Shown piece after piece: positions 599-4,030 of a DNA stretch of 4,030 nucleotides. Source of the DNA: a virus (taxonomy: Duplodnaviria > Heunggongvirae > Uroviricota > Caudoviricetes); IMG/VR virus record IMGVR_UViG_2675903505_000004; one strand, written 5' to 3'. Each line of letters starts with the position of its first letter. Position 1 is the stretch's first letter. Below the pieces are notes generated by a model that was not told the DNA's origin, searched no databases, and saw nothing but the letters and a program-made list of their open reading frames with translations. A program made the translations under genes and the position numbers.

Positions 599-838
599 AA
601 AAGAACAAATGGTAGTGTCCGCTATTGCCAGTACACCTCACAACGCCATCCTGACAAGCGTTTTATCTTCAACGGGAATGAGATATGGAAACGTGGAGAA
701 TCAACCACAGAGTATACCCGCGCACACCAGCGAACAATCAGACGACTGCGCAGACTCATCGCCAGGAAACAGTATACAGAAAAATGGTTCAGAAAATATG
801 ACACATGGAGCGCCGGATATTACGAACTGATGGCAACA
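599..838 (+). pseudogene. Possible 3' remnant of a truncated gene (79 codons, no start codon), basic C-terminal tail
   Basis: Frame +2 is open from just after the transposase-fragment stop (596-598) to TGA 836-838 and encodes ...NGNEIWKRGESTTEYTRAHQRTIRRLRRLIARKQYTEKWFRKYDTWSAGYYELMATKPF with no internal Met until the last few codons. Protein-like composition but no family recognised. Confidence 0.2.
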
Positions 839-910
839 AAACCATTCTGACGTAAACGAAATTAACCATGACGCAATTAAATAAGGCAAGCCGAATACAT
901 CAGGAGGACC

Positions 911-1099
911 ATGAACATTTATTTCAGAATAGTTATATCACTGGCAATTATCGCATGTATTTACGGATTAATCGTTCCGGCCCTCATATCAATGAAGGAT
1001 ACGGTAGCAGTGATTTCTGGCTTTGCTCTGGCGTGTCTGACCCCGCCCTGCATTTATGCCATTTATAAGGGTCTTTCTTTTTCTAAGGATAAAAGATGA
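911..1099 (+). CDS. Small membrane protein, 62 aa, two predicted TM helices with basic C-terminus
   Basis: SD-like AGGAGG at 903-908 then ATG 911. Two hydrophobic segments (RIVISLAIIACIYGLIVPALI and VAVISGFALACLTPPCIYAIY) separated by a short polar loop. Stop TGA 1097-1099 overlaps the next gene's ATG (ATGA at 1096-1099). Confidence 0.55.
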   Translation: MNIYFRIVISLAIIACIYGLIVPALISMKDTVAVISGFALACLTPPCIYAIYKGLSFSKDKR

Positions 1100-1923
1100 A
1101 AAAAGTTATTCCTGCTTTAGCCCTTGTTCTGCTGACCACCGGACTTGTCGGTTGCGATCGCGTTGAGCCTGGTAATGTTGGCATCAAGGTAAACAAACTG
1201 GGCGACGATAAAGGCGTCGGAGAAGTGGTCGGTGTTGGGCGCTACTGGACGGGATGGAACACTGAGGTTTACATCTTCCCGACCTTCAAACAAATGAAGA
1301 CCTACGATGAGCCATTCAGCTTCCAGATGAGTGACGGTACAACCATCGGCTATCACATCGGCGTGGCCTACAAAGTTGATCCATCCAAAGTTACCACAGT
1401 CTTTCAGACCTACCGCAAAGGCGTGGACGACATTACCGACACCGACCTGCGCCAGAAGATAGCCGACGCACTCAACCGACTGGCCAGCAAAATGACCACC
1501 GACAAATTTATCGACGGCGGCAAGTCTGAGCTGCTGGATGCAGCTCTTAAAGACATTCAGGAAGAAATGACGCCCATCGGTATTCAGGTAATGAGCCTCT
1601 CATATGTGGGTAAGCCGGAGTACCCGCCTACTGTTATCGACAGCATTAATGCCAAAGTCACGGCGAACCAGAAAACCCTGCAATGCGAGCAGGAAGTAAA
1701 ACAGCGCGAAGCGGAAGCCAACATGTTGCGCGCGGAAGCTGCCGGACAGGCAGATGCGATTCGCACAAAAGCCCAGGCCGAAGCCGATGCTATTCGTTTA
1801 CGCGGTGAAGCTCTGCGCCAGAACCCAAACGTTATGGAGCTGGAAGCCATCAACAAGTGGAACGGTACACTGCCGCAATACATGACCAGCGGTGCCAACA
1901 CACCATTTATTCAGGTTAAGTAA
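1096..1923 (+). CDS. SPFH/band-7 (prohibitin/HflC-like) domain lipoprotein, 275 aa, predicted inner-membrane-anchored and periplasm-facing
   Basis: N-terminus MKKVIPALALVLLTTGLVGC is a signal peptide with lipobox LVGC; the residue after the Cys is Asp (CDRVEP), the classic inner-membrane retention signal. The body has an SPFH-like core followed by an Ala/Glu/Arg-rich coiled coil (REAEANMLRAEAAGQADAIRTKAQAEADAIRLRGEA) as in HflC/HflK/prohibitin C-termini. SD AAGGA at 1085-1089. Confidence 0.8.
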   Translation: MKKVIPALALVLLTTGLVGCDRVEPGNVGIKVNKLGDDKGVGEVVGVGRYWTGWNTEVYIFPTFKQMKTYDEPFSFQMSDGTTIGYHIGVAYKVDPSKVTTVFQTYRKGVDDITDTDLRQKIADALNRLASKMTTDKFIDGGKSELLDAALKDIQEEMTPIGIQVMSLSYVGKPEYPPTVIDSINAKVTANQKTLQCEQEVKQREAEANMLRAEAAGQADAIRTKAQAEADAIRLRGEALRQNPNVMELEAINKWNGTLPQYMTSGANTPFIQVK

Positions 1924-1930
1924 TACATAT

Positions 1931-1951
1931 GCCCGGTATTACACGCCGGGC
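1931..1951 (+). promoter_or_regulatory. GC-rich stem-loop in the SPFH to ORF6N intergenic region (6-bp stem GCCCGG/CCGGGC, 9-nt loop)
   Basis: Inverted repeat at 1931-1936 and 1946-1951 read directly from the sequence. It is not followed by a T-run, so it is more likely an RNA processing or stability element, or a partial attenuator, than an intrinsic terminator. Confidence 0.3.
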
Positions 1952-1966
1952 TGTCTGGAGATAAAA

Positions 1967-2716
1967 ATGAATACTGTAACCATCAACAACAAACAGTTTC
2001 CGGTAATCGAATATCGCGGTCAGCGTGTTGTGACGCTGGCGATGATTGATGAAGTCCACCAGCGACCGGAAGGAACCGCGCGTGCAGCATTCAACCGAAA
2101 CCGTGAGCATTTCATCAGCGGTGTGGATTATGCCGAATTAGGTGCGGACGTAATACGTACGGACCTCCCGGAAGGAACATTCTCTAAATTTGCACCATCG
2201 GGGATTGTACTTTTTGAATCAGGTTACCTGATGTTGACGAAGCCATTCAATGACGCCCTTGCCTGGCAGGTTCAGCGCGAACTGGTTAACAGCTACTTCC
2301 GCACTCGCACACCGCTAACGGAAATCGAGATGATCGCTGCGATAGCCGCCGACGCTGTTCGTCAACAGAAGCGCCTGAATCATGTGGAAGAACAGCTCGA
2401 AACAGTCACAGAAGCGGTGGAAACCATCAAACGCGGAAATATGCGCGCCGGATATGTCGGTTACCGCCAGGTGGTAGCCAAAAGTGGAATGAGTGACACC
2501 AAGTGTCGGAATCTGGTGAACGCATATCAAATTCCTACAGACACCCACGAATTCATGACTCCGGACGGTCTGTTGTCTCGCAGGGCTATCGTCGAGCTTG
2601 AGCCATTTATGGCGGCGTTCCACCAAATGATGTCAGAGGCTGACCCACGCGGCACACGCTGGTATCACCCGAAGATGGGGCTTTTCCAGGTGATCGGATG
2701 GGAGGATAAAGCATGA
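1967..2716 (+). CDS. ORF6N/KilA-N-like DNA-binding domain protein (phage antirepressor-like N-domain) with coiled-coil middle and uncharacterised C-terminal domain, 249 aa
   Basis: Start chosen at ATG 1967 (GGAG at 1957-1960, 6-nt spacer) rather than the upstream in-frame ATG 1892 that overlaps the SPFH gene. N-terminus MNTVTINNKQFPVIEYRGQRVVTLAMIDEVHQRPEGTARAAFNRNREHFISGVDYAEL fits the ORF6N/KilA-N pattern. Stop TGA 2714-2716 overlaps the next ATG 2713 (ATGA). Confidence 0.65.
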   Translation: MNTVTINNKQFPVIEYRGQRVVTLAMIDEVHQRPEGTARAAFNRNREHFISGVDYAELGADVIRTDLPEGTFSKFAPSGIVLFESGYLMLTKPFNDALAWQVQRELVNSYFRTRTPLTEIEMIAAIAADAVRQQKRLNHVEEQLETVTEAVETIKRGNMRAGYVGYRQVVAKSGMSDTKCRNLVNAYQIPTDTHEFMTPDGLLSRRAIVELEPFMAAFHQMMSEADPRGTRWYHPKMGLFQVIGWEDKA

Positions 2717-3282
2717 TCATCCAGTCAAAACTTATTCGCGCCGCTCTGGTGTGCGCTGCTAAAAACGACGTTCGTTATTACCTGAACGGTCTTCACATCA
2801 CGCCGAAACATATTGAGGCAACCAATGGTTCCGTGGCACTGCGCATGGCTCACGGCATCCGGACGAAGAAAAACATCATTGTCCAGTTCGAAGGGGGCGT
2901 CCCGGCCAAAGCCGAAACGACAGAGCTGATTTTTAGTAAAGAGCCGATCGCTGTTCATCGCGACCAGTTTCAGCGACGACTGTCCATTACCGGCATTAAA
3001 CTGGTGGACGGTTGTTTTCCGGATTTGGATCGCATCATTCCGAAAAAGTTTGACCGCTGTACTCACCCGGTGCTCCAGGCGGGTTACCTGAGTTATCCAG
3101 AGAAGATGTTTGGTCGTGAGCGTAAATTTATTCCCGTCCAGTTACGTCCCTCCGGTGACGGGCAAGCGGTCAGAATTCAGTTTGATTCCATCATCAACTC
3201 AATGTATGGCAATCCTGAATTTGTTGTGATGCCTTGTCGTGATCATGGCGATTTCAACGTGGCTCAGGAGCATCCGGAATGA
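2713..3282 (+). CDS. DNA polymerase III beta sliding clamp (DnaN) domain II-III-like protein; truncated clamp homolog lacking domain I, 189 aa
   Basis: Three blocks align with E. coli DnaN as recalled: AKNDVRYYLNGLHI vs AHQDVRYYLNGMLF (domain II), IKLVDGCFPDLDRIIPKK vs SKLVDGRFPDYRRVLPKN (domain II/III junction), and EFVVMPCR vs AYVVMPMRL (extreme C-terminus). The domain III equivalent is shortened. Own SD GGAGGA at 2701-2706. Stop TGA 3280-3282 overlaps the next ATG 3279. Confidence 0.65.
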   Translation: MIIQSKLIRAALVCAAKNDVRYYLNGLHITPKHIEATNGSVALRMAHGIRTKKNIIVQFEGGVPAKAETTELIFSKEPIAVHRDQFQRRLSITGIKLVDGCFPDLDRIIPKKFDRCTHPVLQAGYLSYPEKMFGRERKFIPVQLRPSGDGQAVRIQFDSIINSMYGNPEFVVMPCRDHGDFNVAQEHPE

Positions 3283-3401
3283 AAATCGAATACCAGGACG
3301 CCGCAGGAGGTGAATCAATGAGCTGGCCTGATGCAATCGTAACTCTGGGGATGGTATTCGCAGTAGCGTTTGTTGTGTACTCGATTTGTCGATGGGGATA
3401 A
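3279..3401 (+). CDS. Tiny single-TM membrane peptide (40 aa from ATG 3279; alternative start ATG 3318 gives 27 aa)
   Basis: Not in the supplied ORF track (too short). Translation MKIEYQDAAGGESMSWPDAIVTLGMVFAVAFVVYSICRWG, stop TAA 3399-3401. ATG 3279 is ATGA-coupled to the clamp-like gene with AGGAG at 3266-3270; the internal ATG 3318 is preceded by a strong AGGAGG at 3305-3310. Hydrophobic core LGMVFAVAFVVYSI. Confidence 0.3.
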   Translation: MKIEYQDAAGGESMSWPDAIVTLGMVFAVAFVVYSICRWG

Positions 3402-3405
3402 CCAC

Positions 3406-3648
3406 ATGTTCGCTTTGATTCAACGCGGGCAGATATACACAGACAGAGCCGGATACCCAGTAGAAATTACTCGCAGTACTGAGCACTCAGTGTTCTTTCG
3501 GAGGATGGACGGACGTACCGGGCGAGTACGCATCGGTGAATTCAGTAGCCTGTTCGAGCATATTGACCACCTGGAATATCACAAGATTCTGGCTGAAACA
3601 GAACAAGAAAAGCACCTGAAGAAATTACGCGCAATGCAAAGGAAGTAA
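3406..3648 (+). CDS. Small phage-type protein, DUF4222-like, 80 aa
   Basis: Start ATG 3406 (MFALIQRGQIYTDRAGYPVEITRSTEHSVFFRRMDGRTGRVRIGEFSSLFEHID...) preferred over the track's ATG 3370, which would overlap the upstream peptide. The spacing of YxDxxG, V.IT, V.F.RR and GEF...F resembles DUF4222 proteins from lambdoid prophages as I recall them. Stop TAA 3646-3648. Confidence 0.45.
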   Translation: MFALIQRGQIYTDRAGYPVEITRSTEHSVFFRRMDGRTGRVRIGEFSSLFEHIDHLEYHKILAETEQEKHLKKLRAMQRK

Positions 3649-3651
3649 AAA

Positions 3652-3798
3652 ATGAATAAAGCGTTTGAGCTATGGGTCCACCAGCGTTACGGCAACCACT
3701 ACGACCTGACGCGAGATGTTGACGGTTTCTACTGTCGTGAAATTGTGAAACGAATGTTTGAGGTCTGGTGCCACTGCCGTGGGCTGAGTGTTGTGTGA
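3652..3798 (+). CDS. Small Cys/His-containing protein, 48 aa
   Basis: Not in the supplied ORF track. SD AGGAAG at 3638-3643, then ATG 3652, only 3 nt after the upstream stop. Translation MNKAFELWVHQRYGNHYDLTRDVDGFYCREIVKRMFEVWCHCRGLSVV, stop TGA 3796-3798. Possible metal ligands C28, C40, H41, C42. Confidence 0.3.
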   Translation: MNKAFELWVHQRYGNHYDLTRDVDGFYCREIVKRMFEVWCHCRGLSVV

Positions 3799-3806
3799 GG
3801 TAATGC

Positions 3807-4004
3807 ATGGGCAATGTGATTCAACTGGCTCCCAATGAATGGGTTTGTGAAAGCGTTCTAATCGCAATTACCGGGCTCAAACCAGGCACAATTCTTCGGA
3901 CCCGGAAAGAATGCTGGATGGTTGGAAGAGAGTATATTCACGTATCACCAGACGGTAATCCAAAGCCTTCTGAAGTGGTCAACAAAAACTGGCCACCGAG
4001 TTAG
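3807..4004 (+). CDS. Excisionase-like (phage Xis/DUF1233-like) protein, 3' end disrupted by IS911-like insertion; chimeric ORF whose last 10 codons and stop are IS-derived
   Basis: SD GAGG at 3797-3800 then ATG 3807. Translation MGNVIQLAPNEWVCESVLIAITGLKPGTILRTRKECWMVGREYIHVSPDGNPKPS resembles excisionase-like small DNA-binding proteins of lambdoid prophages (recalled motif TGLKPGTI...RK.CWM.GREY.H..PDGNPKP). From codon 3972 onward the reading frame lies inside the IS inverted repeat (EVVNKNWPPS, then stop). Confidence 0.5.
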   Translation: MGNVIQLAPNEWVCESVLIAITGLKPGTILRTRKECWMVGREYIHVSPDGNPKPSEVVNKNWPPS

Positions 4005-4006
4005 AG
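3971..4006 (-). repeat. IS911-like terminal inverted repeat (IRR), 36 bp
   Basis: 24 of 36 positions identical to the revcomp of 114-149, including the terminal TGAAGTGG and the GGCCACC core. Confidence 0.75.
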
Positions 4007-4030
4007 TTTTTCCAGTATCGATTTTCCGAT
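3971..4030 (-). mobile_element. IS911-like (IS3 family) insertion sequence, partial: IRR end; element body continues beyond window end
   Basis: 3971-4006 reads TGAAGTGGTCAACAAAAACTGGCCACCGAGTTAGAG, the imperfect inverted-repeat partner of the element end at 114-149. The outer tip is at 3971 and the body extends rightward, so the element is in the same (minus) orientation as the left copy. Confidence 0.75.

Follow-up and report, generated by a model that had tools for sequence, protein, structure and literature searches.

A conserved GC-rich hairpin without a uridine tract downstream of the SPFH gene of lambdoid prophages as a candidate operon-internal protective stem-loop

Genetic setting of the SPFH cassette

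The DNA analysed here (the window, 4,030 nt) is a prophage remnant with insertion-sequence fragments on both sides, namely an IS911 end at positions 1–152 (start and end of orfA, minus strand), the 3' part of IS600 at 358–651, and a third fragment at 3971–4030. The phage part, from about 640 to 3970, is collinear with the early-left operon of the lambdoid prophages located beside yecE/yecN in E. coli. The intact relative in E. coli RMDEC364 has a LexA-family repressor, several small genes, a small membrane protein, and the SPFH lipoprotein, followed by ORF6N, a beta-clamp-like gene, DUF4222, excisionase, and integrase, on one strand throughout, and phage Fraca (Hendrixvirinae) carries the same core with about 79% DNA identity. 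Moreover, an SPFH protein of 100% identity, together with the same junction sequence, is present in one Shigella flexneri and one E. coli chromosome. The prophage in the window has neither the repressor/promoter region nor the integrase, and its excisionase gene (3807–4004) ends in a C-terminus that, beyond 3970, consists of insertion sequence.

The two-gene SPFH cassette begins with a gene for a small hydrophobic protein of 62 amino acids (911–1099, + strand, from the open reading frame list), which overlaps the SPFH start by 4 nt and gave no match in a Pfam search; the same small gene lies upstream of SPFH in Fraca, P88, Cyrano, and E. coli prophages. The second gene (1096–1923, + strand) encodes an SPFH/Band 7 lipoprotein of 275 amino acids (PF01145, E = 6e-31; 'SPFH domain-containing protein' in RefSeq). 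It is followed by a gene for an ORF6N-domain protein of 249 amino acids (1967–2716, + strand, Pfam PF10543), whose start at 1967 is preferred over an in-frame GTG at 1892 since it matches the RefSeq and Fraca annotations and the start of homology at 1964. The Pfam domains recognised in the window are Band 7/SPFH, ORF6N, DUF4222, and the DUF1233 excisionase. The 189-residue protein encoded at 2713–3282 bears the RefSeq name 'beta clamp domain-containing protein', with only a sub-threshold Pfam similarity to the central domain of the DNA polymerase III beta subunit (E = 0.007), and resembles a clamp at about half size in a phage early operon. PADLOC found no anti-phage defence match among the four proteins around the SPFH–ORF6N junction, and a literature search on SPFH prophage or exclusion functions returned nothing relevant.

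According to the open reading frame list, neighbouring genes from 911 onward either overlap or are separated by 3–8 nt, with the exception of the 43-nt spacer between SPFH and ORF6N. A preliminary description of this DNA had taken that spacer for the only sizeable gap of the operon, with 8 nt or less at every other junction, which holds from 911 onward and fails upstream, where a second long, AT-rich spacer of 61 nt (850–910) separates a 5'-truncated gene ending at 849 from the small membrane gene. Neither a hairpin nor a promoter-like match was found in this second spacer. Thus, the SPFH cassette is bracketed by the only two long spacers, the 61-nt gap upstream and the 43-nt gap downstream. 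In RMDEC364, an IS3-family element is inserted in the spacer equivalent to 850–910, just before the ATG.

The hairpin of the SPFH–ORF6N spacer

The SPFH gene ends with a TAA stop codon at 1921–1923 (+ strand), and the 43-nt spacer that follows it (1924–1966, + strand) contains a GC-rich hairpin, for which the coordinates and sequence given in the preliminary description proved exact. On the + strand, seven nucleotides (1924–1930) lead from the stop codon to the stem base, and the hairpin then comprises a 5' arm of GCCCGG (1931–1936) plus U1937, a loop of sequence AUUACAC (1938–1944), and a 3' arm of G1945 plus CCGGGC (1946–1951), the nine nucleotides between the 6-bp arms being TATTACACG. The 3' flank (1952–1966, + strand) has no U-tract and contains TGTCT at 1952–1956 and, 5 nt past the stem, the GGAG Shine-Dalgarno sequence of ORF6N at 1957–1960, ahead of the ATG at 1967.

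RNAfold predicts the six GC pairs and a seventh pair, U1937·G1945. The folding energy, which the preliminary description had put forward as a check, is not negligible, as it reaches −13.7 kcal/mol for 1928–1954 (z = −3.0, matched or bettered by 2 of 200 dinucleotide shuffles) and −14.4 kcal/mol for the whole 43-nt spacer (z = −2.2, matched or bettered by 4 of 200), while an extended fold of 1900–1990 gains only weak AU pairs. Among 8,002 sliding windows of 30 nt, the hairpin ranks fourth in energy, and second on the + strand. Energy by itself makes the hairpin only borderline unusual and not unique; that it exceeds chance follows from its conservation in relatives and not from its folding energy. 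A hairpin of equal stability (−14.0 kcal/mol) lies in the coding region of ORF6N at 2019–2040 (GTCAGCGT...ACGCTGGC), and it looks largely lost from the orthologous sequence of Fraca.

A perfect 7-nt inverted repeat, GTAATAC/GTATTAC, spans the stop codon and the hairpin loop in the window type only, and is absent in phiP27, Fraca, and other types. The competing helix that it would form (GUAAUAC, 1920–1926, with GUAUUAC, 1936–1942) consists of AU pairs except at its ends, is much weaker than the GC stem, and was set aside as a chance pairing. An Rfam search of the whole window at E ≤ 1 left the hairpin unmatched and returned only two meaningless eukaryotic matches elsewhere.

Occurrence of the hairpin in related phages

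SPFH homologues and the DNA on either side of them were taken from viral contigs, reference genomes, metagenomes, GenBank phages, and E. coli genomes, and the sequences following the stop codon were compared. In the enterobacterial lambdoid group, 41 distinct sequence types share one arrangement, in which the stop codon is followed by 7–8 nt, GCCCGG, 6–9 nt, and CCGGGC. The 7–8 nt between the stop codon and the stem are conserved in length and not in sequence across these 41 types. The loop varies freely in both sequence and length, and between groups no alignment is possible for it, for the 5' spacer, or for the 3' flank. In the 22 types that were aligned, the core six bases of the 5' arm are invariant without exception. 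Most of the distant types form a 7-bp helix, GCCCGGC/GCCGGGC, with a loop of 4–5 nt.

The tail of the hairpin and transcription termination

The hairpin resembles an intrinsic terminator in its GC-rich stem of 6–7 bp, within the range of about 5–12 bp typical of terminators, in its short loop, and in its position directly after the last gene of the cassette, but it differs in that the uridine-rich tract is missing in all lineages and the next ribosome-binding site follows within 1–12 nt. The tail after the stem in the window is UGUCUGGA. None of the 22 aligned types has a U-tract at this place, with at most three T within 8 nt, and most tails consist of the purine-rich ribosome-binding sequence of the next gene. 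A scan of the window with a terminator consensus did not call the hairpin.

Phage Fraca does use canonical terminators elsewhere. The complete Fraca genome contains ten intergenic, perfect, GC-rich hairpins, eight of which are followed by T runs of 5–7, mostly in the late region, and a ninth by TTT only. The hairpin after SPFH is the sole such hairpin of the Fraca early-left operon and has no T-rich tail on either strand. Since the other hairpins of Fraca mostly carry T5–T7, the U-less state is specific to the SPFH hairpin and not a habit of the phage.

True terminators also occur after SPFH itself in more distant members of the family. Cyrano and elements of Kluyvera, Buttiauxella, and Yersinia carry a canonical terminator after SPFH (GGCGTCC-ACTT-GGACGCC-TTTTTT), another locus (L137) has ACCCGC-TTCG-GCGGGT-TTTTT in the same place, and textbook terminators follow more distant SPFH homologues at two further loci (L215 and L302). 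In P2-like phages, there is a different GC hairpin that is again U-less, CCGGCCAG...CTGGCCGG, and in a Lelliottia element (L093) the hairpin is followed by TTTT and then by the ribosome-binding site. Among the examples examined, cassettes that close their transcription unit have a U-tract, and those with a co-oriented gene directly behind them lack one. This pattern fits a stem of the terminator type that persists with no U-tract in an operon where polymerase must pass through to xis and int. A P1-like element (L102, MH422554) has an apparent tRNA gene, recognised by eye (GGCCCTTTAGCTCAGTGGTTAGAGC...), about 30 nt past the SPFH stop codon, rather than a hairpin or terminator.

Phage 'moron' cassettes are reportedly closed by terminators. 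Promoter scans upstream of the SPFH cassette in the window, in a Stx-type prophage, and in Fraca found no promoter-like site, which sets this cassette apart from such morons and leaves the idea of a self-contained moron with its own promoter unsupported.

A partial attenuator, as the preliminary description had suggested, would be a leaky non-canonical terminator or a pause hairpin at which some polymerases stop after SPFH, and the expression of the antirepressor-like gene, xis, and int would then be limited unless phage antitermination is active. Terminators typically have GC-rich stems like this one, and the true terminators at the same position in more distant homologues, the TTTT of the Lelliottia element, and the U at three of the first five tail positions in the window type speak for such a role. 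However, U content is not the conserved feature, as no U-tract exists in any of the 22 aligned types, the tail is mostly ribosome-binding sequence, the consensus scan was silent, and Fraca employs canonical terminators elsewhere, with eight hairpins followed by T5–T7. Moreover, U-less hairpins inside E. coli operons gave no sign of termination when tested experimentally (PMC5927463). Attenuation is therefore a weak candidate and an unlikely explanation of the hairpin.

Linkage of the hairpin to SPFH and not to ORF6N

The preliminary description had presented the hairpin as a feature upstream of ORF6N, and the comparison of relatives contradicts this, since the hairpin moves with SPFH. At least ten different, unrelated genes are found after it, including ORF6N, DUF5406-like genes (phiP27 and Stx2 phages), excisionase-like and clamp-like genes, and several unknowns. 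In BLAST comparisons, phages that share only SPFH are homologous as far as 1923, 1936, or 1952, and phages that share only ORF6N are homologous from 1964 onward, which places the 3' flank with its Shine-Dalgarno sequence in the downstream module. ORF6N homologues in phi467 and CharmingMan have a different upstream gene and an 11-nt junction without a hairpin. The linkage to SPFH, the variety of downstream genes, the BLAST breakpoints, and the hairpin-less ORF6N homologues all show that the SPFH module ends, on its 3' side, with the hairpin. The joint of the mosaic thus lies immediately 3' of the hairpin, and the proximity of the stem to the ORF6N ribosome-binding site is incidental, with ORF6N a neighbor of the hairpin and not its partner.

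A translational element, which would insulate or modulate the downstream ribosome-binding site or enforce coupling to SPFH translation, could account for the Shine-Dalgarno sequence being found 1–12 nt past the stem in every lambdoid context, and abutting the stem in the phiP27 type. Nevertheless, SPFH keeps its hairpin when a different gene, with another ribosome-binding site, comes to stand downstream, and the spacing between stop codon and stem is conserved whereas that between stem and Shine-Dalgarno is variable. Moreover, the Shine-Dalgarno lies outside the stem, and other phages have ORF6N genes with no hairpin before them. A translational function is therefore improbable.

At four phiP27-type loci (L070, L072, L080, and L278), the start of the DUF5406-like gene reads ATA and not ATG (GCAGATAAAC), in loci that are otherwise intact; the same four also carry the G·U stem variant GTCGGGC.

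Constraint on the stem and the strand on which it acts

Even types whose SPFH genes retain a third-codon identity to the window of only 0.45–0.55 have the same 12 core stem bases. If the stem evolved at the third-codon rate, an identity of 12 of 12 bases would be expected with a probability of approximately 0.5^12 = 2e-4 per comparison, by the arithmetic of this analysis. Stem alleles that break one pair are rare and comprise a C-to-A change at four loci (L007, L035, L175, and L261) and a G-to-A change at one (L135).

These data bear on whether the hairpin might be a functionless relic, namely a former cassette terminator devoid of its U-tract that hitch-hikes with the SPFH gene. The canonical terminators after distant homologues and the few natural alleles that break a pair are what such a relic would leave. 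However, where third-codon identity has fallen to about 50%, all 12 stem bases have been kept although the sequences next to them, namely spacer, loop, and flank, have been randomised, and alleles that break a pair are rare whereas those that preserve it as G·U are common, so that a relic is doubtful at best.

In the 22-type alignment, 98.7% of the cells of the 7-bp helix are standard pairs, compared with 18–52% in a control in which the 3' partner was slid by 1–3 columns. The closing (seventh) pair is C-G in 15 types, U·G in 5, and U-A in 2. Two-sided change is confined to one of the seven pairs, and a covariation score as high as the observed one was obtained in 38 of 500 column shuffles; the covariation support is weak, and the case rests on sequence conservation. 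The widespread variants of the stem are mostly C-to-U changes on the 3' arm that give G·U pairs in the + strand RNA, affecting G1931 and, in two backgrounds, G1936. These variants fit an RNA of the + strand, because a G·U pair there would be an A·C mismatch in a minus-strand transcript and would be meaningless for a DNA palindrome bound by protein. It is very probable that this is a real hairpin, conserved, linked to SPFH, free of a U-tract, and acting as + strand RNA.

The stem GCCCGG/CCGGGC might also be recognised in a sequence-specific manner by an RNA-binding factor of the phage or the host, for instance one belonging to a so far unnoticed system of processing, antitermination, or localisation associated with the membrane-protein cassette. 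Such recognition would account for a stem that is frozen, essentially without compensatory change, in lineages close to saturation at neutral sites, and that accompanies the cassette into many phage backgrounds, but its probability is considered slim.

Further matches to the pattern GCCCGG-N9-CCGGGC (L100, 2699–2719; L130 and its relatives; CharmingMan) all lie inside the excisionase gene, where they encode K-P-G-T-I-L-R-A, and the xis gene of the window has no such palindrome. A repeated element was therefore rejected, and these matches were considered a coincidence of coding. Only a single copy is present at each locus, which, together with the coding origin of the other matches, speaks against a REP/BIME palindrome, as such elements are dispersed in many copies per genome and share the REP consensus. 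The BLAST matches of the junction in E. coli are all linked to SPFH or ORF6N and occur in at most three places per genome, with the proviso that an isolated 21-nt hairpin would escape detection by this search.

A role at the level of DNA, as a palindromic protein-binding site or as a recombination-prone joint between modules of mosaic genomes, is very improbable, since the position of mosaic breakpoints within or immediately 3' of the hairpin and the conservation of the stem sequence beyond its pairing, which would both suit it, are outweighed by an inter-arm distance of 6–9 nt that is ill-suited to a dimeric DNA-binding protein, by tolerated variants of the G·U type that pair only in + strand RNA, by a single copy per phage, and by the likelihood that six bases would be too few to drive homologous recombination.

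A putative operon-internal 3' protective stem-loop

In E. coli operons, a stable hairpin without a uridine tract ends 26 of 34 upstream genes that are selectively stabilised, with the stable mRNA end located immediately after a strong hairpin, and malE-malF is the classic case (PMC5927463, Dar and Sorek 2018). Salmonella and Enterobacter have retained the sequence of these protective hairpins (PMC5927463). The SPFH hairpin is similar to the malE-malF type in being a stable GC-rich stem-loop just past the upstream cistron, 7 nt after the SPFH stop codon and inside a polycistronic unit, in its lack of a uridine tract, in the conservation of its sequence and structure across related genomes, and in having a presumably more abundant structural or membrane product encoded upstream. 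It differs in being a simple stem of 7 bp, whereas malE-malF has a REP-type element, and in residing in a horizontally mobile phage cassette, whereas the known set belongs to chromosomal operons. Judged by its sequence, the SPFH hairpin shows every computationally checkable feature of operon-internal 3' protective hairpins.

Thus, it is tentatively proposed that the hairpin could be the U-less, operon-internal 3' protective stem-loop of the SPFH cassette, serving as an exonuclease barrier, a reading that is quite possible by analogy with the E. coli cases and the most likely of those considered. The preliminary description had envisaged an RNase processing or stability element separating the expression of the membrane pair from that of the downstream genes. 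Of these, stability and the partitioning of expression agree with the U-less protective class (PMC5927463) and remain the best-supported reading. Processing by RNase III does not fare as well. RNase III sites require about two helical turns, roughly 20 bp of duplex, and the 7-bp stem is too short for them.

According to the proposed mechanism, a cis-acting RNA stem-loop would form the 3' end of the mobile two-gene cassette, which encodes the small membrane protein and the SPFH lipoprotein, in the early-left operon of lambdoid (HK97/phiP27/Stx-type) prophages. The hairpin would be transcribed within the polycistronic + strand mRNA and, without a U-tract, RNA polymerase would continue into the next gene. 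Once an endonuclease had cut the transcript within the downstream cistrons, PNPase and RNase II would degrade it from the new 3' end as far as the stem, and the message of the membrane pair would outlast the ORF6N, clamp-like, and xis part, giving a differential decay within the operon in the manner of malE-malF. A stem of 6–7 GC pairs is reported to lie near the lower limit for stalling PNPase, which counts against such a barrier. The conserved distance of 7–8 nt from stop codon to stem would place the base of the helix at about the mRNA channel entrance of a ribosome positioned on the stop codon, judging from the known ribosomal footprint, and the hairpin could therefore remain folded during full translation of SPFH. 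As for its origin, the stem may derive from a terminator of the cassette whose U-tract disappeared or was never present.

Another short GC stem-loop of the early-left transcript of lambdoid phages is the lambda-type nut boxB, which lies just downstream of the early promoter with a boxA nearby and has a conserved, GNRA-like pentaloop recognised by an N protein; the Fraca-type loops GUAAA and GCAAA look GNRA-like. Unlike boxB, the SPFH hairpin has a variable loop (AGGCC, UGAAU, GAGA, AUUACAC, and others), no boxA was identified with it, and it sits behind an accessory gene in mid-operon, several genes past the repressor/promoter region in intact relatives. The variability of the loop in sequence and length rules out a boxB.

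Protection of the upstream message, if it is the correct reading, would mean that a small RNA stability element is packaged with an accessory gene cassette and carried between mosaic phage genomes, and that a horizontally acquired gene pair brings its own post-transcriptional expression setting without blocking the read-through to the essential xis and int genes. Operon-internal protective hairpins are a known kind of element, and what would be new is the modest addition of their inheritance together with a mobile phage cassette. The SPFH hairpin would be well suited to studying differential decay in the early operons of phages. It marks the 3' module boundary of the cassette, and its annotation as a terminator or as an ORF6N regulator is inadvisable. 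Because the remnant in the window, flanked by insertion sequences, has lost the early promoter, the element may be out of use there, and may possibly be a fossil in this DNA even if it is functional in intact relatives.

SPFH relatives in metagenomes and unexpected hosts

A scan of metagenomes with a degenerate pattern for the SPFH C-terminus yielded mostly chance matches, with about 25 SPFH relatives among the 120 loci listed; among these listed matches, one new hairpin type and several terminator-type ends were found. Three loci assigned to unexpected organisms, namely a 399-nt contig of Rhizobium wenxiniae (L095), an archaeal metagenome-assembled genome (L096), and Vagococcus sp. (L098), carry, on short contigs or as partial matches, SPFH sequence like that of enterobacterial phages, with 63–84% protein identity, and the Vagococcus locus has the P2-type hairpin. 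They look like assembly contamination rather than a true host range.
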